From an uncultured Lentimicrobiaceae bacterium (GTDB taxonomy: Bacteria > Bacteroidota > Bacteroidia > Bacteroidales > 4484-276): a stretch of DNA of 64,000 nucleotides. The DNA lies in the NCBI GenBank assembly GCA_964593705.1, contig CAZQIV010000004.1, positions 27,646-91,645 on the forward strand, written 5' to 3'. The translations under genes were made by a program, and so were the position numbers. The notes under the pieces are model-generated. The model was not told the origin of the DNA. It searched no databases and saw nothing but the letters and a program-made list of their open reading frames with translations. Position 1 is the stretch's first letter, and each line of letters opens with the position of its first letter. Positions 29,128-42,257 of this stretch are shown piece after piece.

Positions 29128-29305
29128 GCTCTTTGAAAACAACCAATGCTAACATTACCCCGGACTTCAGTCCGGAATTAAAAAGGGTTACATTATCTTC
29201 CGGGTTTTTGCACTAATTATAGAACAGTAGCTTAAGTAATAGGGCTCTCCTTAGGAATGCCTTCGGCAAAAGCCCGGTGGGTTCTTGTGTTTTTCTTGAC
29301 CACAG

Positions 29306-29371
29306 GCTAAAGCCTGTGGTAAGTCAGGCTAAAGCCTGTGGTAAGTCAGACTAAAGCCTGTGGTAAGTCAG
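29306..29371. repeat. Tandem repeat, 3 x 22 bp, each unit carrying half of a hairpin
   Basis: Unit gctaaagcctgtggtaagtcag at 29306, 29328 and 29350 (third copy starts with a). The first copy pairs with the preceding gaccacagg. Confidence 0.85.
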
Positions 29372-33085: not shown

Positions 33086-35632
33086 CTATTTTTCCAGAGG
33101 TAGTTTGGTCCGTTTAATTCCATCGAAAGCATAAAACGCGTTGGCAACGGCAGCCGCAGTAGGTACTAAGCCAATTTCACCAATACCTTTTGCGCCATAA
33201 GGCCCAACCGGATCTTTTACTTCAACGGGCTTTACCACAATTTCAGGGGTTTCGTGGGCACGAAGAATTCCAAGGTCGCGCATCTTTTCACTAAGCAAAA
33301 AACCATCTTTCATGGGTAAGTTTTCAGAAAGTGCATAACCCAAACCCATGTGAACACCGCCCTCCACCTGTCCTTCGAAAAGCATCGGGTTCATAATCTT
33401 CCCTCCATCATGGGCGGCAACAATTTTTTCAATTTTACCTTCATCATCCAAAATACACAACTGGGCTGCATAGCCGTATGAGTAATGAATTACGGGGTTT
33501 TCAGCGCCCGATCCGGGTTTTGAAGTCCAGTCGCAAACAAACTGCCCATGATAGGTTTTCCCTGCCAATTGGTTTAAATCGTATTTTTTCAAATCTTTCT
33601 TTAGCGCTTTTGCAGCGTCAATCACTGCCAGACCAACAAGCGCTGTTGCCCTCGACGAAGTTGTCATGCCAGTTTTGATTTGAGCTTCGGTATCTACTTC
33701 CACGGTAATTATTTCAGGGTCGATGTTGGTTTCCTCGCACAGTGTTTGCAGAGCCATATTATGCACCCCCTGCCCCATCTCGGTCCAGCCGTGTTTTAAA
33801 ATTATTTTCCCACCATCACAAATCCCGATAATCACTTTTGATTCGTCAATCATGCCGTTGCCAACACCTGAATTTTTTATCGCGCAAGCCAACCCGGCAA
33901 ACCTGGCATTATAAAAATCCTTTTTTACCGCTTCGAGCGATGCACGAATACCAACGCCAAAAACCTTTTGCCCGGTGGAAGTTTTTAATCCATCTACCAG
34001 TGCATTGTCGTATCTGAATTTCCAACGGTCGAATCCAGCTTGATAGCAAATATCATCAATACAGCTTTCGAGGGCAAAGCACACCTGGTTGACGCCAAAG
34101 CCCCGCATTGCTCCTGAGGGAATATTATTGGTGTAAACGGTTTTGGCCTCAATATCAATTACAGGGATAAAATACCCTCCGGCAGCATGTCCGGCCACAC
34201 GCTCAAGTACTTTCATGCCCACCGAAGCATAAGCTCCCGTATCGCCAACCGCCCTTAATTTAAGGGCTGTTAATTTCCCTGATTTATTTGCTGCCAGACT
34301 AATATCCATAAATACAGGATGCCTTTTGGGGTGAAGCCTGAAAGATTCAGGACGTGTAAGAGTTATTTTTACAGGCCTGTTCATAAGGAAAGCAAACAAT
34401 GAAGTTTGCCCCTGGACACTCAAATCTTCTTTCCCACCAAAACCACCGCCATTGGGGACAAGAATTACCCGAACTTTTTCTTCGGGCAGTCCCAATATCA
34501 TTGCTACCTGCCGGCGGTCTTCATAAATTCCCTGGCTCTGACTGTAAAGAACAATTCCACCTTCACCATCCGGCACTGCTACGGCAGCCTCCTTTTCCAT
34601 AAAGGCGTGCTCTATTCGCTGCGTTTCGTATTGGCCTTCCGATTTAAATTCAGAGTTTTTAAACGACTCATCAAAATTGCCGATTGTAAAAATTGTGGTG
34701 TCGAAATTATTTGGCCTTTCGGGATGAACACGCTCGCCGTCAATGGCTTCAAAAACATCGGTAACAGGCTTTAAAACTTCATATTCTACACTGATTAATT
34801 CTATTGCCCGGCGGGCTATTTCATCAGAATCTGCAACAACCCCCGCAAGTACGTCCCCGATGTAATGCGTTGTTTCGCCCACTCCGATCATCACCGGCCA
34901 ATCCTGAAAAATCAAACCCACATATTGTTCGCCGGGGATATCTTTTGCAGTAAACACACGATGAACGCCCGGTAAAGATTCAGCCGCCGAGGTATTAATT
35001 TTTAAAATTTTAGCTTTTGGATGAGCACTGAATTTTAAAGCAGCAAACAGCATATCATCCAAAAAAATATCATCAACAAATTTCCGCTGACCAATGGCAT
35101 TAATATAAGCCTCATATTTGGGATGAGAGATGCCGACCTTTCCGGAAGTTTTTGTGATTTCTAATTTTTTATTATTTCTGATGGCCTCAGCAGCAGCAAA
35201 TACGCCACTTTCAATTTTTTTGTATCCTGTACATCTACAAAGATGTGGTTTTATTGCTTTTTGAATATCCTGGAGGGAAGGATTGGAATTATCCTGCAAA
35301 AGCACTTTTACCCTGCTCATAAATCCGGGGGTACAAAACCCGCATTGCACCGCGCCACTATTCACAAATGCTTTGGCAATGGTATCTTTCACATATTCGG
35401 GAAATCCCTCGGGTGTGAAAATTATGGCGCCTTCAAGTTTCTTCATCTTCATCACGCACGAAAGCCTTGCTTTTCCATTAATCTCAACTGTGCATGCTCC
35501 ACATGCCGACTGTGCTGAACAACCGTCTTTTACAGCCGTGAAATGATTATCCAAGCGTAAAAATTTCAACAGGCTTCTTTCCGGATCGCCGAAATAATTG
35601 ATAAGTTCTCCATTTAATGTGAAGGTAATCAT
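33086..35632 (-). CDS. Molybdenum hydroxylase of the xanthine dehydrogenase / aldehyde oxidoreductase (MOP-like) family with fused N-terminal 2x[2Fe-2S] domains
   Basis: N-terminus CSAQSACGACTV..C and CGFCTPGF..C.C, followed by ~700 aa of Mo-pterin-binding domains (GGGFGGKE, MGQG). No FAD domain. Confidence 0.8.
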   Translation of the reverse strand: MITFTLNGELINYFGDPERSLLKFLRLDNHFTAVKDGCSAQSACGACTVEINGKARLSCVMKMKKLEGAIIFTPEGFPEYVKDTIAKAFVNSGAVQCGFCTPGFMSRVKVLLQDNSNPSLQDIQKAIKPHLCRCTGYKKIESGVFAAAEAIRNNKKLEITKTSGKVGISHPKYEAYINAIGQRKFVDDIFLDDMLFAALKFSAHPKAKILKINTSAAESLPGVHRVFTAKDIPGEQYVGLIFQDWPVMIGVGETTHYIGDVLAGVVADSDEIARRAIELISVEYEVLKPVTDVFEAIDGERVHPERPNNFDTTIFTIGNFDESFKNSEFKSEGQYETQRIEHAFMEKEAAVAVPDGEGGIVLYSQSQGIYEDRRQVAMILGLPEEKVRVILVPNGGGFGGKEDLSVQGQTSLFAFLMNRPVKITLTRPESFRLHPKRHPVFMDISLAANKSGKLTALKLRAVGDTGAYASVGMKVLERVAGHAAGGYFIPVIDIEAKTVYTNNIPSGAMRGFGVNQVCFALESCIDDICYQAGFDRWKFRYDNALVDGLKTSTGQKVFGVGIRASLEAVKKDFYNARFAGLACAIKNSGVGNGMIDESKVIIGICDGGKIILKHGWTEMGQGVHNMALQTLCEETNIDPEIITVEVDTEAQIKTGMTTSSRATALVGLAVIDAAKALKKDLKKYDLNQLAGKTYHGQFVCDWTSKPGSGAENPVIHYSYGYAAQLCILDDEGKIEKIVAAHDGGKIMNPMLFEGQVEGGVHMGLGYALSENLPMKDGFLLSEKMRDLGILRAHETPEIVVKPVEVKDPVGPYGAKGIGEIGLVPTAAAVANAFYAFDGIKRTKLPLEK

Positions 35633-36849
35633 GATATTAGTTTTTTGAGGTTATCCAAATTTGGAACAATGGGCTCAGGAAAGTGCAAGGTTGATTTTAA
35701 GGCTGCAATGTCTTTCAGACCGCTCCCCGTAAGCAATACAACATTTTTAGAGGATTTTTCGATCTGATGACTTTCGAGCAATTTCAGGTATCCGGCATAA
35801 GCAGCAGCAGATGCCGGTTCGGCAAACAAGCCATAAGTTTGGCTCAGATTGATGGATGCATCCAATATTTCATCATCAGGAACTGAAATTGCCATACCCG
35901 CATATTTTTTCAAATATTTTTTTGCCATGTAAAAATTGCGCGGAATATCCACCGAAATAGAATCGGCTATGGTGCTACTTTGTTTAACCTGAAAATTAGA
36001 AGAAAATAAGTTGTTGATTAGATTATTTGATCCTTCAGCCTGCACCGCGACAATCCGTGGTATCTTTTTTATAATTCCCAAATTCAACAAATCTTCAAAA
36101 CCCTTATAAACCCCTGAAATAATTACACCATCACCCACTGGCACAAATATCCGCTCAGGGATATTTAAACCAAGTTGATCGAACAATTCAAAACTCACAG
36201 TTTTTTTACCTTCAATGGTAAAGGGATTAAAAGCGGTGTTGCGGTTATACCACCCAAAAGCTTCGCCGGCCAGCACACTTAAATCGAAGGCATCGTCATA
36301 GGTTCCTTTTACAGGAATAATTTTAGCGCCATACATCATAATCTGGGTAAGCTTGGCAATTGGCGCTTTTTCAGGGACAATAACTATGGCCTTTTGATGC
36401 TGCGCGGCACAAATCCCGGCAATGGAAGAACCCGCATTTCCGGTTGAGGCTGCAACAATGGTTTCCCAACCTTGCTCTTTTGCATAAGCAGAAACCAGCG
36501 CCGAAGCCCGGTCTTTGTAAGAGTAAGTTGGATTTTGTGAATCATCTTTAAAAAACAAGCCTTCGTCAACTTTATAAAGCGGAGTATTTCCGAAATCCAG
36601 GAAGGGCATGCTATCGAGATTGTTGATAGGAAGCAAATCAAGAAATCCGATAGACTTCAATTTGGAGAAGTCGGTTTGATTTTCGTTTAAAAGATCAAAA
36701 TCATAATTAACTTTCAAAACACCAAGCGGAGGTTTATCCTTTTGGTTTTTCGCATTACATACCGGACAAAGGTATTTTGCTTCATCCCCGGCATAATGCT
36801 TACCGCAGTTGATGCATTCAAAATGAAATTTCTTTTTTATTTTTTTCAT
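35629..36849 (-). CDS. Threonine synthase-like PLP-dependent enzyme with N-terminal zinc ribbon
   Basis: CINCG..x..CPVC ribbon, then NPTYSYKDRASALV (PLP lysine) and STGNAGSS. Its stop overlaps the downstream Mo-hydroxylase start (ATGA). Confidence 0.7.
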   Translation of the reverse strand: MKKIKKKFHFECINCGKHYAGDEAKYLCPVCNAKNQKDKPPLGVLKVNYDFDLLNENQTDFSKLKSIGFLDLLPINNLDSMPFLDFGNTPLYKVDEGLFFKDDSQNPTYSYKDRASALVSAYAKEQGWETIVAASTGNAGSSIAGICAAQHQKAIVIVPEKAPIAKLTQIMMYGAKIIPVKGTYDDAFDLSVLAGEAFGWYNRNTAFNPFTIEGKKTVSFELFDQLGLNIPERIFVPVGDGVIISGVYKGFEDLLNLGIIKKIPRIVAVQAEGSNNLINNLFSSNFQVKQSSTIADSISVDIPRNFYMAKKYLKKYAGMAISVPDDEILDASINLSQTYGLFAEPASAAAYAGYLKLLESHQIEKSSKNVVLLTGSGLKDIAALKSTLHFPEPIVPNLDNLKKLIS

Positions 36850-36854
36850 CTATA

Positions 36855-36950
36855 CAAAAATAGCCACTGCTTGCCCGCCTGCTGGCAGGATACACGAATG
36901 ATCGGGGCAAGCGTGGGAGTTAATAATTATCATTCAATTATGCCTATCAT
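36855..36950. repeat. Dispersed hairpin repeat (same family, inverted, as 48205..48315)
   Basis: gcccgcctgctggcagg hairpin plus gggagttaataattatc, which is the reverse complement of gataattattaacaccc at 48236. Confidence 0.55.
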
Positions 36951-36954
36951 CACT

Positions 36955-37405
36955 CAGTTCGCTTCGTTCTCTAAAGTCTCTTAGTTCTCTAAAGTCGCTT
37001 AATTCGCTTAAGTCGCTTAGGTCTCTAACGTCTTTTAGGTCTCTAAAGTCGCTTAATTCGCTTAAATCGCTTAGGTCTCTAACGTCTTTTAGGTCTCTAA
37101 AGTCGCTTCGTTCTCTTAGTTATCCTCGTTCTCTTAAGTCGCTTCGTTCTCTTCGTTCTCTAAAGTCGCTAAAGTCTCTTAGTTCGCTTAGTTCTCTAAA
37201 GTCGCTTCGTTCGCTTAGTTATCCTCGTTCTCTAAAGTCTCTTAGTTCTCTAAAGTCGCTTCGTTCGCTTAGTTCGCTCAAGTCTCTAAAGTCGCTTCGT
37301 TCTCTAAAGTCGCTTAGTTCTCTTAGTTCTCTAAAGTCGCTTAGTTCGCTCAAGTCTCTAAAGTCGCTTCCGTTCGCTCAAGTCTCTAAGTTCGCTTCGT
37401 TCGCT
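36955..37405. repeat. Minisatellite: 50 tandem 9-bp units (consensus NNNgtYKct), 451 bp
   Basis: Forty-six consecutive units are in strict 9-bp phase, then one 10-bp unit and three more. A 54-bp higher-order duplication covers 37000-37053 / 37054-37107. The array abuts the stop codon of the gene at 37406. Confidence 0.95.
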
Positions 37406-38875
37406 TTACATATACTCCTTCAACAATCCGGTAGCTTCGTTAAATTCGTTAATCTTTTCATCCCACTCTTCAACTTTTGCATACCTCGACTTCCAGTAAT
37501 TATCATCGTACCACTGGTCGTTGAGCTCCTCGATAGTCTTGCCCTGTTGTTCAATCCAGGTAAAATACTTTAGGTTATGCATCCGCTTTTTCTCGTAGTA
37601 ATTCATCTCTATGATATGATCGACACCCAAACCCAACATGTCAGCATCAAAACTTACTGCTGCATCCCTGTTGGTAAATTCGCCATGCTTTTGCTTTTCT
37701 TCAGCAACCCTTGTCTGGTACATTTCCATCGAATCGGTAGCAACAGTAAATACAACATCATCTTTATTCAATTCGTAATATTTAGCCATCTTTATGGCAC
37801 CCATCAGATTCGCGATGGAGGAAATACCCATCAGATTTAGTTTTTCAATCAAAGCAGCATCGATGCCAATTTCATTTTTCAGGTAATCCTTCCCGGTCTG
37901 CTCATTAAACAAACGCATCAGTCTGATATTTGGATTATCATCGATTCCGGCCACCATATCCATATTTTTGATGTTGTGTATCCATGGAACATGCTTGTCG
38001 CCAATGCCTTCGATGCGGTGCTCGCCATAGCCGTTGAGCAATAATGTAGGGCATTGCAACGCTTCGCCGGCACAAACTTTTATGTGAGGATAAACTTCGC
38101 GCAGGTAGTCGGCACTGCCCAGCGTTCCTGCCGAACCCTGGGTAAGAAACATCGCGCTAAATTTCGATTTATCAGTTTTTACCTTATTAAAAACTTCTTC
38201 CATGGCGGGGCCTGTAACCGCATAATGCCAAAGTGAATTACCAATTTCCTCAAACTGATTGAGGTTTACAATACCGTCACCACGCTCAGCCTTGAGTTCT
38301 TTTACTTTGTCATAAATTTCCTTTACATTGCTCTCGCTGCCGGGGGTGGCAAAAACTTCGGCTCCCACTTTATGCAGCCAGTCGAAGCGCTCCTGCGACA
38401 TACCCTGGGGCAATACTGCGATGGATTCACATCCCAACAAATAGGAATCGTAAGCACCTCCACGGCAATAATTTCCGGTGGAAGGCCACAAAGCCTTTTG
38501 TGTAGTAGGATCAAAACGGCCACTTACCAGCTTCTCAACCAAGGGGCCAAAAGTAGCTCCAACCTTATGGGCTCCGGTCGGGAAATATTTCCCAACCAAC
38601 ATGATAACCCTGGCCTTAACCCCGGTAAGTTCAGAAGGCAATTCAAAATAATTAACACCGCCAAAACCACCACCAAATTTTACCGGCTCGTTTTTCCAGG
38701 TAATTCTAAACAAGTTGAGCGAATTTAAATCCCAGAGCCCAATGTTAGCAAGCTTTGCTTGTATTTTTTCAGGAACCAATTCAGGATTTCGCATTTGTGC
38801 ATAAGTAGGCAGAATGATATGTTTTTCCCTGCACCTTTCTATTGTGTTTTTTAAAACTTTCTGTGTATCTTTCAT
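37406..38875 (-). CDS. TrpB-like / fold-type II PLP-dependent enzyme, specificity unknown
   Basis: 489 aa. FPTGAHKVGATFG resembles the TrpB H-x-G-[STA]-H-K PLP-lysine motif. Also has a glycine-rich GSAGTLG loop. Confidence 0.6.
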   Translation of the reverse strand: MKDTQKVLKNTIERCREKHIILPTYAQMRNPELVPEKIQAKLANIGLWDLNSLNLFRITWKNEPVKFGGGFGGVNYFELPSELTGVKARVIMLVGKYFPTGAHKVGATFGPLVEKLVSGRFDPTTQKALWPSTGNYCRGGAYDSYLLGCESIAVLPQGMSQERFDWLHKVGAEVFATPGSESNVKEIYDKVKELKAERGDGIVNLNQFEEIGNSLWHYAVTGPAMEEVFNKVKTDKSKFSAMFLTQGSAGTLGSADYLREVYPHIKVCAGEALQCPTLLLNGYGEHRIEGIGDKHVPWIHNIKNMDMVAGIDDNPNIRLMRLFNEQTGKDYLKNEIGIDAALIEKLNLMGISSIANLMGAIKMAKYYELNKDDVVFTVATDSMEMYQTRVAEEKQKHGEFTNRDAAVSFDADMLGLGVDHIIEMNYYEKKRMHNLKYFTWIEQQGKTIEELNDQWYDDNYWKSRYAKVEEWDEKINEFNEATGLLKEYM

Positions 38876-39004
38876 ATTATATCTAATATTTATTCATTTA
38901 TAATTTTAATTTTTATCATGGCTAAAATTTGTAGTTATTTTTTTTCAAAACCAAAAACCTAACAGGTTGATTTGTTTAACCGTATTCATATTTTCTAATC
39001 AGTT

Positions 39005-42000
39005 TTACGCTGCTTCCGGGGGTAAACCTGTTAGGGTTATGACACTTTCCAAAATAATCATCATTTGAGCAGTAAAACTCAAATCCATTTCAAAAGGAAC
39101 ATCAGTCAATAATTTATATTTTTCAATACTAAAATCTTTGTTGATTTCAAGTTCAATTTTTTCGGTATTAAAATAGAAACCATGGTCTGATTTCATAAAA
39201 CTGAATGTGTCTCCTTCGTCTTTAGCATGCAGAATTTTCCCATCCCAAAAAAAGCCTGTTTTTTCACTTTCAAAATATTCTTTATTTAAAAACAGATGGG
39301 GTTTATTAAGATATGGAGCGCCTTCGGTAGGACAAAAAGTATTGCAATTGCCGCACTTGTTGCACCAATCGGCAATATGCAGAATCTGGTATTTTTGTTT
39401 GACTTCAAAAAATCCATCATCCATAATCTGAACCTTTCCATCCTTAACAATCAGTTTTTGATTTTTGATTTTTGATGGAATAATTTCGTAAGTCATCAGT
39501 GCATTATTTGGGCATACCGTAGTACAAATACTACAAAGCTCATCGCATTGCAAACATCTTTTCGATTCTTCAATCCCCTGTTTGAGGGTAAGCGGCGATT
39601 GAACCAAATCAAAATTCATTCGGTCACTCACCGGTTTTTCTTTAACAATTGCAGGTTTTATTCGCTTTGACTTATCAATAATGTGCTGCCTGAAACTTTT
39701 TTCGGGACGTTCAGTTTTGGTTTTGGTTTTAAAATTCAAACCTGCTTTATCGATGATTTCCTGTGCTGCTTTTCGTCCATCGCCAATTGCATTGATTGCT
39801 GTGGAAGCACCACGCTTGGCATCCCCACCGATAAAAACGCCGGGTATGCCTGTTTCGTAACTTCCATTTTTTGCTACAAGCTGGCTTTTATCCAAAAAGT
39901 CGAAGGCCAGGTTCTGGCCAATTGCGGGGATTATGGTATCGGCAGAAATCTCAAAATCGCTACCTGGAATTTCTATGGGCCTTGCCCTGCCCGATTCATC
40001 CTTAGCTCCTTGTTTCATTCTACGGAAAGTCATGGATTTTACCAGACCATCTTTGGTGTTTACGCTTACAGGAGCAACAAGTTCAATAATTTCCACGCCT
40101 TCTTCAATCACAGCTTTAATTTCACCAAGATCGGCAGGCATCTCTTTTATCGTGCGGCGATAAGCGATGGTTACTTTCCCTTGTTTACCGGCAACACGCC
40201 AGGCAGTCCGCGCGGCATCCATGGCTGTATTGCCCCCGCCAATAATTAAAATATTATGTCCTGCCGCGGTTTTCTTTCCTGATTTTACATCAAACAAAAA
40301 CTCCAGTGGATCGAGCACTCCTTTTGCCATTCCATTTTTTACAAGAAATGGTTTAGATTTTTGCGCACCGGCTGCTATATAAACAAAATCATTTTCAAGT
40401 CTTAACTTGTCAAAAACTACTTTATTAATTTCACTTTCGTAATGAATATTAATCCCCAGGTCGGTAATGCGTTTCACATCCAACTCAAATGCCTCACCGG
40501 GAAGCCTGAAAGATGGGATTGCTCCCGACACCATGCCACCCGGTTTTTTCTTTGTCTCGAAAATCTCAACATCAAAACCTGCCTTAGTAAGAAAATAAGC
40601 ACAGGATAAACCTGAAGGGCCGGCTCCGATAACTGCAGCTTTTAATGGGTTTTTGGATCGAACAAACTCAGGGCTTTTCAATGCATCTTCAGGCGCATTT
40701 TCGGCAATCACCCTTTTCACTTCCCTTATCAGGACAGAGCTATCGTAGTTGATACGCGTACATTTTGTTTGACATAAATGGTCGCAAACCATTCCGGTGG
40801 TGATCGGGAACGGATTGGTTTGGGTAACTACTTTTGCAGCCTTATCCAAATTGCCCTTGGCAGTGTAATACAAATAGTCAGGTATTCCCTGATGCGTGGG
40901 ACAAGTGGTTTCGCAGGGTGCATGAATGCAATCGAAAAAGCTTAAAGGTTGATTGGTTTTTATGTCCGGGTTTTTAAGGTAAGTCCGGCGGTAATCCTTC
41001 ACTTCCAAAACTTTATCAGCATAATCGTTCAGGTATTTTAAAGGATGAGTTTGCTCAATGCTGGCTTGACTAAGATTTTGGATGTATTGATTTAACCTCC
41101 CGTAGCCGCCTGGTTTAAGCAAGTCGGTGCAAACAGTTACCGGCGATAATCCACAGCAGACCAAATCCACAATATTAAAAGCATCAGCGCCACCTGAAAA
41201 AGAAATATCAAGTGTGCCTGAAAAATCATTTTGCAGTTTTCGTGCAAGATTTACCGACACCGGATGCAAAGCACGGCCACTCATGTACATCATGTCCTGG
41301 CTGCTATCAAAAATTTCTTTGTGGTTTTTACTTTCGAGGGTATTTGTAAGTTTAAGGCTGAATTGAAGATTTTGTTTCCCTGCAAGGTTTGACAGATTAT
41401 TAATAATTTTAATTGCATCGGGATATTTCAGGTCGTGCTCGAAAGCCTCATGGGGTATTATTGTCTCGAAGCCGTTATTACTAAAAATTGCAGACAAATC
41501 CTTTTTACCAAGCAAGGTTGGATTTAATTTTATGGCTGTGTGTAATTTCTTTTCATTAATCAAATATTCACCAATTTTCTCAATTTCGTCCGGCGGGCAG
41601 CCATGCATCGTGGAGAGGGTAATGTTATCGGACAGGCATGAATTAATTTTTAGGTTTTTGATATTTGGATAAATATCTTTTATCGTTTCAATTTTTTGAG
41701 CAAGTTCGGCGGATGCATCCTTCATTTTATCAAAAAACCACTGCACATTTTCCTGAAGTATGCCCTCCAAATTGTATCCAACGCTCATATTGAAAATAAA
41801 CCCGGGAATATCAGGATTTCCAATATTCAACTTATCTTTTAAAATATGAATCAAAATCCAGGCATCGAGATATTGATGGAAGGACTGGTGAATTTTCAAT
41901 TCCTGGGACCACTCACAATTGTAGCCCTCATCCTGCATATCGATACAGGGCTTTGAAACTTCCAGTTCATCCATAGTCTGGATGGTTTTAAGTTCGATAA

Positions 42001-42241
42001 ACCGTGCACCGGTCAGCCAGGAAGCCACAATATTTTGCGCAAGCTGGGTATGGGGACCTGCGGCAACTCCGAAGGGTGTTTCAAGCGCCTGCCCGAATCT
42101 TTCAATCCGGAAAGGATCATCAATATTTGGAACAAAAAAGAGTTCTTTCGGGATAGAAAAAATAAAGCCACTTCTATCGTATTGATTTAAGATACGCTGC
42201 AGCAGTTGACTTAAAGGAAGCGGAAAAAATTTGTCTGACAT
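39005..42241 (-). CDS. ygfK: YgfK-like multidomain Fe-S flavoprotein (DHOD-like barrel + GltD-like FAD/NAD(P)H module + 2x[4Fe-4S])
   Basis: About 1078 aa. N-terminal TIM-barrel region, central CIHAPCETTCP...CDHLCQTKC and KAAVIGAGPSGLSCAYFL, C-terminal CLQCDELCSICTTVCP / CNKCGNCNTFCP. The track start at 42253 is TTG; the ATG is at 42241. Confidence 0.7.
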   Translation of the reverse strand: MSDKFFPLPLSQLLQRILNQYDRSGFIFSIPKELFFVPNIDDPFRIERFGQALETPFGVAAGPHTQLAQNIVASWLTGARFIELKTIQTMDELEVSKPCIDMQDEGYNCEWSQELKIHQSFHQYLDAWILIHILKDKLNIGNPDIPGFIFNMSVGYNLEGILQENVQWFFDKMKDASAELAQKIETIKDIYPNIKNLKINSCLSDNITLSTMHGCPPDEIEKIGEYLINEKKLHTAIKLNPTLLGKKDLSAIFSNNGFETIIPHEAFEHDLKYPDAIKIINNLSNLAGKQNLQFSLKLTNTLESKNHKEIFDSSQDMMYMSGRALHPVSVNLARKLQNDFSGTLDISFSGGADAFNIVDLVCCGLSPVTVCTDLLKPGGYGRLNQYIQNLSQASIEQTHPLKYLNDYADKVLEVKDYRRTYLKNPDIKTNQPLSFFDCIHAPCETTCPTHQGIPDYLYYTAKGNLDKAAKVVTQTNPFPITTGMVCDHLCQTKCTRINYDSSVLIREVKRVIAENAPEDALKSPEFVRSKNPLKAAVIGAGPSGLSCAYFLTKAGFDVEIFETKKKPGGMVSGAIPSFRLPGEAFELDVKRITDLGINIHYESEINKVVFDKLRLENDFVYIAAGAQKSKPFLVKNGMAKGVLDPLEFLFDVKSGKKTAAGHNILIIGGGNTAMDAARTAWRVAGKQGKVTIAYRRTIKEMPADLGEIKAVIEEGVEIIELVAPVSVNTKDGLVKSMTFRRMKQGAKDESGRARPIEIPGSDFEISADTIIPAIGQNLAFDFLDKSQLVAKNGSYETGIPGVFIGGDAKRGASTAINAIGDGRKAAQEIIDKAGLNFKTKTKTERPEKSFRQHIIDKSKRIKPAIVKEKPVSDRMNFDLVQSPLTLKQGIEESKRCLQCDELCSICTTVCPNNALMTYEIIPSKIKNQKLIVKDGKVQIMDDGFFEVKQKYQILHIADWCNKCGNCNTFCPTEGAPYLNKPHLFLNKEYFESEKTGFFWDGKILHAKDEGDTFSFMKSDHGFYFNTEKIELEINKDFSIEKYKLLTDVPFEMDLSFTAQMMIILESVITLTGLPPEAA

Positions 42242-42257
42242 AGTAAAATTCAATTAT

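Follow-up and report, generated by a model that had tools for sequence, protein, structure and literature searches.

A dispersed, lineage-restricted family of nonamer tandem arrays, often adjoining stop codons, in an uncultured marine Bacteroidales bacterium

Heterocystous cyanobacteria carry heptamers known as short tandemly repeated repetitive (STRR) sequences. Units of 5–11 nt have been grouped as 'long simple sequence repeats' (LSSRs; Mrazek et al. 2007, to the extent that it is relayed in PMC4679880). Here, we describe a 451-base array of 9-nt units (nonamers) that lies between two genes for pyridoxal phosphate (PLP) enzymes, at positions 36955 to 37405 of the minus strand, in a 64,000-nt stretch of DNA (hereafter the window) from an uncultured marine Bacteroidales bacterium of the family Lentimicrobiaceae (GenBank assembly GCA_964593705.1, contig CAZQIV010000004.1, positions 27,646 to 91,645). 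The array belongs to the dispersed short-tandem-repeat kind, lineage-restricted and genome-wide, and its family shows all of the tested features by which STRRs and LSSRs are recognized: a unit repeated head to tail with nothing in between, many dispersed and mostly intergenic, non-coding loci, and a sporadic distribution confined to one lineage. STRR-like heptamer arrays (periods 7, 14 and 21) are moreover abundant in the same genome. The family departs from the STRRs and LSSRs in its 9-nt unit, in which the AGNGA core is fixed and the 4-nt spacers come from a small alphabet, in its uncultured marine Bacteroidales host, in the length of its arrays (up to 50–70 units) and in its marked tendency to start at stop codons in a G-rich sense orientation.

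The TAACTGA direct repeats of marine Beggiatoaceae, cyanobacteria and five Bacteroidetes are also intergenic (MacGregor 2015, PMC4679880). They occupy more than 100 intergenic sites beside unrelated genes, some sets overlap the upstream stop codon in the 'forward' orientation, the spacers of relatives are shorter and repeat-free, and single-strand RNA-binding proteins have been proposed as their readers (PMC4679880). The nonamer family shares with them a short unit placed beside unrelated genes, the overlap with stop codons and the repeat-free spacers in relatives. The TAACTGA units are, however, heptamers, mostly present in 2–6 copies just before start codons, and place stops in all three frames (PMC4679880), whereas the nonamer preserves the reading frame, forms much longer arrays and is anchored at the upstream stop rather than at the downstream start.

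Within the Bacteroidales, BrickBuilt of Porphyromonas gingivalis is a species-restricted minisatellite and MITE (a transposable element of the miniature inverted-repeat type) with 19 dispersed intergenic copies (Klein et al. 2015, PMC4596501). It resembles the present family as a dispersed, intergenic, spacer-free minisatellite in a Bacteroidales genome, but its unit is 23 nt long, it carries leader and tail subunits with inverted-repeat ends, and its copies lie 49–591 nt from coding sequences (PMC4596501). The nonamer arrays instead have no common leader, heterogeneous tails and frequent contact with stop codons, and we saw no leader or tail with terminal inverted repeats of the MITE type on inspecting their flanks.

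The repetitive extragenic palindromic (REP) sequences and bacterial interspersed mosaic elements (BIMEs) of enterobacteria are built of hairpin units linked to REP-associated tyrosine transposases (RAYTs), and can affect mRNA stability and termination. They too are scattered, as mosaics built of small modules, through transcribed 3' regions and the spacers between cistrons, whereas the nonamer array is non-palindromic and folds worse than shuffled sequence (z = +1.85), which sets it apart from REPs. The sites bound by TRAP in Bacillus trp leaders comprise 9–11 (G/U)AG triplets with 2–3-nt spacers in a 5' leader that overlaps the antiterminator. They share with the focal array a short purine motif at fixed spacing in unstructured RNA beside genes of amino-acid metabolism, and offer a model for a multimeric reader; the present arrays differ in having 50 units at the focal site, a 9-nt spacing, a position downstream of a gene and dozens of unrelated loci, and on these grounds we do not class them as TRAP-type.

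The array and its genome-wide family

The focal array is real, and every detail given for it in an earlier note on this DNA was confirmed: its 50 units, a lone 10-bp unit, a 54-bp duplication, the abutment to a TAA codon and a gap of about 100 nt to the next gene. Read on its sense (minus) strand, the array parses into 4 units (37405 to 37370), one extra base and 46 units in unbroken 9-nt register down to 36955; the extra base belongs to the 10-bp unit at 37369–37378, which shifts the reading frame on both strands. Tandem Repeats Finder, run on the window, called the array at period 9 (44.7 copies, 66% matches, hence degenerate units) and at periods 18 and 54 over the span 36959–37369. Two adjoining 54-bp (six-unit) higher-order copies lie at 36992–37099 on the minus strand (blocks 37046–37099 and 36992–37045); they differ from each other at one base and bear the signature of a recent internal duplication.

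The units follow the pattern N-AG-(C/A)-GA-NNN, as in AAGCGACTT, TAGAGAACT and AAGAGAACG. Four columns are nearly fixed among the 50 units (A at position 2 in 48, G at position 3 in 48, G at position 5 in 48 and A at position 6 in 50), and positions 1, 4, 7, 8 and 9 are bi- or tri-allelic. The sense strand is composed of 40% A, 26% G, 17% C and 17% T. Three cores in correct phase (AGNGA-N4-AGNGA-N4-AGNGA) occur 35 times in the window, always on the minus strand within 36950–37405, and never in 100 shuffles. The sense RNA is less structured than 98% of shuffled sequences. The Rfam 15 covariance models gave no gathering-score match in the window and none at E ≤ 1 within 36750–37500; no known RNA family, riboswitch or attenuator was found, and the array is unstructured. 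Consensus scans for intrinsic terminators and promoters in or beside the array gave hits at chance level only.

The array is not peculiar to its operon. Querying the host assembly (7.3 Mb, 310 contigs) with the focal array by BLAST returned 71 matches, and a motif scan of the same genome found 52 arrays with about 770 units, which merge into 35 loci. The sense-strand consensus of the family is N-AG-(C/A)-GA followed by CTT, ACG, ACT or CTG. The longest arrays comprise 50–70 units, and core-to-core spacings across the whole family are predominantly 9 nt (611 cases) and 18 nt (91 cases). Five of the 35 loci lie at contig ends, as expected because repeats break assemblies; since all genomes compared here are fragmented metagenome-assembled genomes (MAGs), array counts and lengths are lower bounds.

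The genome is unusually rich in short tandem repeats of other kinds as well (1016 loci covering 87 kb, with periods mostly of 7/14/21 and 9/18/27), and nonamer arrays often stand within mosaics that include octamers (GAATGAYT), CGATTAA-like heptamers and small hairpin modules. Many loci share one mosaic order, namely (GAATGAYT)n, (AGNGA-N4)n, GGCGAAT... and (CGATTAAC)n. The 3' tails of the arrays fall into at least three groups, and the focal array ends in GGCATAATTGAATGATAATTATTAAC, which is related to the tail at other loci. On the 5' side, the arrays are flanked by other microsatellites or by stop codons that belong to unrelated genes. Two loci on one contig (C1:154198-154520 and C1:154976-155190 in the host genome, G000) consist of arrays followed by the same units in inverted orientation (GGTGACAAAA, then TTCGCTTAGTTCGCTTAAGTCGCC...); array and anti-array, paired in this way, could fold into a long imperfect hairpin, in contrast to the focal array.

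To describe variation across the family we scored 639 interior units without conditioning on the core. The alphabet is restricted everywhere, and rare variants remain below 5% at eight of the nine positions, the exception being G at position 2 (9%). The fixed positions 3, 5 and 6 show rare variants at 0.8–2.0%, compared with 0.2–4.5% at bi-allelic positions. Rare variants in these units thus reveal no clear excess of constraint on the AGNGA core over the spacer positions, as purifying selection on it would produce, and the similar rates imply that the variable columns reflect a shared set of unit types rather than relaxed wobble positions.

Distribution among relatives and placement at stop codons

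The earlier note had proposed searching the genome and its relatives for the unit; beyond the approximately 35 loci of the host, the family was present in two of eight congeners, G001 and G003, and absent from G002 and G004–G008, and two of 32 other genomes of the family or order gave single weak matches. It also occurs on a few unrelated metagenome contigs (L109, L139 and L143). A scan of metagenome and viral contigs for (AGNGA-N4)x6 found 246 stretches, of which 12 have family-like units; the others are mostly unrelated 9-bp coding or satellite repeats, and the scan is too unspecific. The focal locus was found in one public run, a marine metagenome. Our literature search on repeats in Lentimicrobium-like bacteria found nothing.

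Orthologous sites in the congeners give a graded series. At the focal site, the two PLP genes of G008 are 60 nt apart with no repeat. The spacer of G003, the closest relative by four compared proteins (72–89% identity), contains 3–4 units that start from the stop codon, AGTGAAGGA-AGCGACTTT-AGCGAACGG-AGCGGGTGC, and then other small modules, and the host spacer contains 50 units. The progression of 0, 3–4 and 50 units, together with the near-identical 54-bp duplication, is the pattern expected from seed units that expand in place, and it illustrates cleanly how a minisatellite is born within a conserved pair of genes.

Other sites behave comparably. The spacer between an ABC-2 permease gene and prmA contains 20 units in the host, about 9 units that begin inside a TAG codon in G003, and 12 nt, empty of repeats, in G007. 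After prmA, the host has nonamers, G003 has heptamers and octamers, and G007 and G008 have none, whereas the array that follows a LOG-family gene in the host has no counterpart in G003, G007 or G008. In the reverse comparison, the host has a nonamer array at the site orthologous to one further G003 array, one G003 site and one G001 site are occupied by different heptamer arrays in the host, and the remaining sites are empty.

The placement of the arrays relative to genes follows a rule, which we regard as of greater value than any single array: the tandem repeats of this lineage pile up at stop codons with their G-rich strand in the mRNA. Gene calls for this analysis were crude and covered long open reading frames (ORFs) only (4753 ORFs). 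Of 32 loci, 19 lie downstream of a co-directional gene, and 11 of these 19 start within 18 nt of its stop codon, as against one of 11 antisense arrays, which face a convergent gene (Fisher p = 0.018). The first unit of the focal array abuts the TAA (37406–37408) of the 489-aa PLP gene with no base in between. Often the stop codon (TAG or TAA) lies inside the first, slightly degenerate unit, as at C235:294-401, C104:8754, C1:177229 and C138:9588 of the host genome, and the last three codons of the C235 ORF are repeat units, so that the array supplies the stop. The upstream genes, whose kinds were assigned by reading their sequences without a scan against a family library, are diverse and mostly metabolic, and include those for a glycogen-branching enzyme, a LOG-family protein, PrmA and an ABC-2 permease.

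The strand bias extends to tandem repeats of every kind. Among the 143 blocks that lie within 20 nt of a stop codon, G exceeds C on the mRNA strand in 110 and C exceeds G in 30 (p = 6e-12); beyond 20 nt there is no such bias, and the bias of A over T is weak. ORF calling does not create the effect, since only 15 blocks overlap gene 3' ends. The rule of placement after stop codons also holds in G001 and G003, and is seen on metagenome contig L143. A replication-linked (Chi-like) orientation is unsupported, the motif strand agreeing with the regional GC skew in 17 loci and disagreeing in 12.

Origin and possible roles of the arrays

On balance, the focal array is probably a non-coding satellite of the STRR/LSSR type that has grown by slippage and is tolerated in transcribed spacers after stop codons only in the G-rich orientation. 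The parts of this composite reading differ in firmness: it is near certain that the array does not code and belongs to a dispersed family, and it is uncertain that the family lacks a dedicated function. A few units would have been seeded at the stop codon in the common ancestor of the host and G003 and would then have multiplied in place by slipped-strand mispairing or unequal exchange. The array would be co-transcribed with the upstream gene as an unstructured, purine-rich stretch with more G than C and would have no role peculiar to the PLP pair; where it lies and how it is oriented would represent what is tolerated, or favoured by mutation, in RNA newly released from the ribosome. Rho, which is encoded in the host genome, uses C-rich, G-poor RNA as its loading site, and the resulting polarity is established. 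The C-rich, G-poor orientation of an array would mimic such a site and bring about polarity, while the G-rich orientation would escape Rho and may promote R-loop-driven expansion.

The statement in the earlier note that the array is hard to explain by slippage alone proved half right. Slippage accounts for growth, as documented by the 54-bp duplication and the graded unit numbers at the focal site; it does not account for a unit alphabet common to some 35 loci and to other species. This shared alphabet weighs against the satellite reading: AG[C/A]GA with CTT, ACG, ACT or CTG persists across about 35 loci and in further species with only 70–89% identity between orthologous proteins, whereas under purely local slippage the arrays would be free to drift, each to a unit of its own. 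In addition, three of the nine orthologous sites compared between G000 and G003 carry the family in both genomes (the focal site, the ABC-2 permease–prmA spacer and C51/C195), and at two further sites of the nine one genome or the other has a G-rich tandem repeat of another kind, which hints that some property of these sites, or of the presence of an array there, is being maintained. The shared core and spacers imply either that units are homogenized or seeded between loci by a process that spreads them, or that the AGNGA-N4 phasing is read by something, for which a multimeric RNA-binding protein would be the first candidate.

A bolder proposal, which we put forward tentatively and at a low probability, is that the stop codon itself is a structural boundary for the birth or the function of repeats, and that the end of translation determines where arrays are located. 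In one version, a multimeric RNA-binding protein would read the G-rich AGNGA-N4 arrays in the naked mRNA behind the terminating ribosome; in the other, R-loop-driven expansion would occur at the stop and would not be suppressed by Rho on G-rich, C-poor RNA. If true, such a boundary would explain both the 110:30 strand bias and the arrays that begin inside TAG or TAA. The version with a reader would amount to a new post-transcriptional system in a phylum that, to our knowledge, is largely without Hfq, CsrA and ProQ. More generally, should the rule reflect Rho avoidance, R-loop expansion or an RNA-binding reader, this lineage would offer a natural setting in which to study how the evolution of repeats in bacteria is shaped by the boundaries of transcription and translation, and it bears on the long-unexplained persistence of STRR-like repeats.

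The main competitor of the satellite reading, to which we assign a minor share of the probability, is that the arrays are multivalent binding platforms on which an RNA-binding (or single- or double-stranded DNA-binding) protein cooperatively holds AGNGA cores at 9-nt phasing; a protein-binding array was among the candidates of the earlier note. The arrays would then be 3'-untranslated or intercistronic elements that serve mRNA stability, processing or the insulation of the downstream cistron. This agrees with a core that is near-invariant without conditioning (48–50 of the 50 focal units), with a 4-nt spacer of fixed length and variable sequence, with the alphabet shared between loci and species, with the sense-oriented arrays that abut stop codons, with the unusually unstructured RNA and with the retention of the family at three of the nine sites. 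However, unit numbers range from 0 to about 70 at otherwise equivalent sites and some congeners are entirely without arrays, the upstream genes have no common function, and another repeat family (7- or 8-mers) takes the place of the nonamers at some orthologous sites. Rare variants, as described above, are about as frequent at core as at spacer positions, approximately 40% of the loci are antisense to genes or far from them, and no candidate binding protein was identified.

We consider it improbable that the arrays are small non-autonomous mobile elements that, like BrickBuilt, contain a minisatellite and were transposed or targeted to gene 3' ends together with a 3' tail. The mosaic order common to many loci and the related tail of the focal array would fit such an origin, as would the neighbouring modules, which are dispersed repeats too. 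No 5' leader is conserved, though, and the 5' ends are the stop codons of unrelated genes; on reading the flanks, terminal inverted repeats and target duplications were not evident. Likewise, the proteins that flank the largest loci, which were read without running a family search, included no transposase or reverse-transcriptase-like neighbours and appear to be housekeeping proteins, revealing no source element. The graded 0, 3–4 and 50 units at one site fit in-place growth instead.

A contingency (phase-variable) locus, in which changes in copy number would tune expression of the downstream ThrC-family gene, is less probable still. The earlier note had offered such an operon-specific coupling or contingency element, and in its favour the array stands between two co-directional genes, tandem repeats are mutable and unit number differs between species. 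The structure does not correspond to such a locus: the units are degenerate, the array lies after a stop codon and outside any ORF, the consensus scan called no promoter hexamers on the gene strand around it, and 105 nt of non-repeat sequence with its own hairpins separate it from the next ATG. The proposal also finds no support in the wider comparison, as dozens of unrelated genes precede such arrays and the orthologous spacer of a congener has none.

Translation of the repeat, whether into an antisense (X-S-L)n protein or into a (S/R)(D/E)(L/F/R)n tail that read-through would add to the upstream PLP enzyme, has next to no chance of being correct and is effectively refuted by the frame data. 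The earlier note had pointed to a start-less, stop-free X-Ser-Leu frame on the plus strand, antisense to the genes. This frame indeed exists: it is open for 223 codons from 36902, and its first ATG, GTG or TTG is 645 nt in, past the array, so that no start codon lies in or before the array inside the open frame. An equivalent frame is open through 17 of the 22 arrays of at least 12 units, which favours translation at first sight but is built into the consensus, because its antisense codons are rc(NNN) (rc, reverse complement), TCN and CTN and position 9 is almost never A.

The synonymous-looking variation reported with this frame stands as an observation but loses its coding meaning. Counted against the modal codons, differences in the X-S-L frame are synonymous in 39 cases, non-synonymous in 34 and stops in none, and this frame is the best of the six; the pattern arises because the fixed dinucleotides AG and GA start 3 nt apart. 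This spacing makes positions 1, 4 and 7 third codon positions in one frame per strand, and the antisense of the fixed pairs happens to give TC- and CT-, the prefixes of four-fold-degenerate Ser and Leu codons. By our own count, such a pattern appears in 9 of 126 random placements of four fixed positions, and in 1 of 3 placements of two dinucleotides.

The sense strand fares no better. Its (S/R)(D/E)(L/F/R) frame is interrupted, as the earlier note had seen, by two TAA-containing units (AGGATAACT) and by the 10-bp unit, and although the upstream stop codon and the focal array share one phase, read-through would halt after 15 codons. Across the family, when the register is broken, the spacing (8, 10, 17, 19 nt and the like) is hardly ever a multiple of 3, and the phase of the arrays relative to the upstream gene frame is spread 5/5/4 over the three possibilities. 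Pfam found no family above its cut-off. Coding on either strand was thus rejected on frames, starts, indels, phase, Pfam and homologue C-termini. A relic or unconventional coding repeat, the remaining suggestion of the earlier note, fails with it: homologues of the PLP enzyme in many phyla end at residue 488 or 489 without such a tail, which excludes a C-terminal relic of that gene. For annotation, this means that the long open frame across the array is not a gene and that gene callers will produce spurious low-complexity ORFs at about 35 places in this genome; the only long ORFs that overlap arrays are generated by the repeats, and the arrays lie between unrelated genes.

An artefact of short-read assembly is most improbable, for although the MAG has 310 contigs and several arrays lie at contig ends, independent Logan contigs from run X1 match pieces of the array and its two junctions without a mismatch, at a depth of 70–96x that is close to the depth of the flanks, and the family is found again in two other genomes and in metagenomes unrelated to this one.

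The PLP gene pair and its spacer modules

The array is embedded in a conserved, co-directional cluster (33086–42253) that encodes a YgfK-type oxidoreductase (TIGR03315), the 489-aa PLP enzyme, the ThrC-family enzyme and a selenium-dependent xanthine dehydrogenase (TIGR03311), with the array between the second and third of these genes. The upstream gene (37406–38875, minus strand) encodes a 489-aa fold-type-II PLP enzyme that matches Pfam PALP; the label 'TrpB-like' given to it earlier is loose, since the only closer similarity is to CysK/CBS-like proteins, is weak and falls below curated cut-offs, and TrpB is not demonstrable. The product of the downstream gene (35629–36849, minus strand) is a PLP enzyme of the ThrC family, 406 aa long and with a zinc-ribbon at its N-terminus; it matches TIGR00260 at 180.9 bits (cut-off 167.1).

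The 489-aa enzyme has full-length homologues (60–88% identity) in more than 80 genomes spread over many phyla, and every one of them ends at residue 484–489. The ThrC-family gene is its neighbour in many of these phyla, among them Bacteroidota, Cloacimonadota, Marinimicrobia, Caldisericota and Elusimicrobia, with gaps of 6–200 nt, and where the gap is larger in relatives it contains small inserted genes and not repeats. As the pair is conserved without the array elsewhere, the array is an insertion into it, and neither part of the design of the pair nor a decayed C-terminal extension.

Small genes stand in place of repeats in the PLP–PLP spacers of some relatives, at L013:4459-5140, L014:4468-5560 and L016:3011-4092. 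One type of insert is an ORF of 160 aa between inverted catataaggcatttaag repeats, another is an ORF of 354 aa, and a third consists of two small ORFs that are like a toxin–antitoxin pair in size and arrangement. From these sequences, the spacer looks like a recurrent landing site. In a Guaymas-type Bacteroidetes MAG (L034:4456-5010), low-complexity repeats of an unrelated kind (GTTTTTGA, GTTTCAAG and the like) occupy this spacer, which hints that repeats may have colonized it more than once.

In the host, the 105 nt that separate the focal array from the start of the ThrC-family gene (36849) are made up of two dispersed mini-repeat modules. The first, directly after the array (36895–36933, minus strand), is a mini-repeat of about 38 nt with GAATGAT...ATCATTC arms that folds as a hairpin, and blastn-short found at least 20 copies of it at 92–97% identity on 20 or more contigs. 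The second (36856–36902, minus strand) is the hairpin module GCTTGCCC...GGGCAAGC, with copies on contigs C4, C9, C77, C107 and C145; the spacer hairpin that it forms has a minimum free energy of −33.6 kcal/mol (z −1.5) and was not called by the terminator scan. Between this module and the downstream ATG sits TATTTTTG, which we take to resemble the Bacteroidetes −7 promoter motif; an upstream TTTG element is not present. Elsewhere in the window, at 29303–29371, a 22-bp unit (CAGGCTAAAGCCTGTGGTAAGT) is repeated in 3.1 copies at 97% identity and forms a hairpin-containing tandem repeat of a different family.

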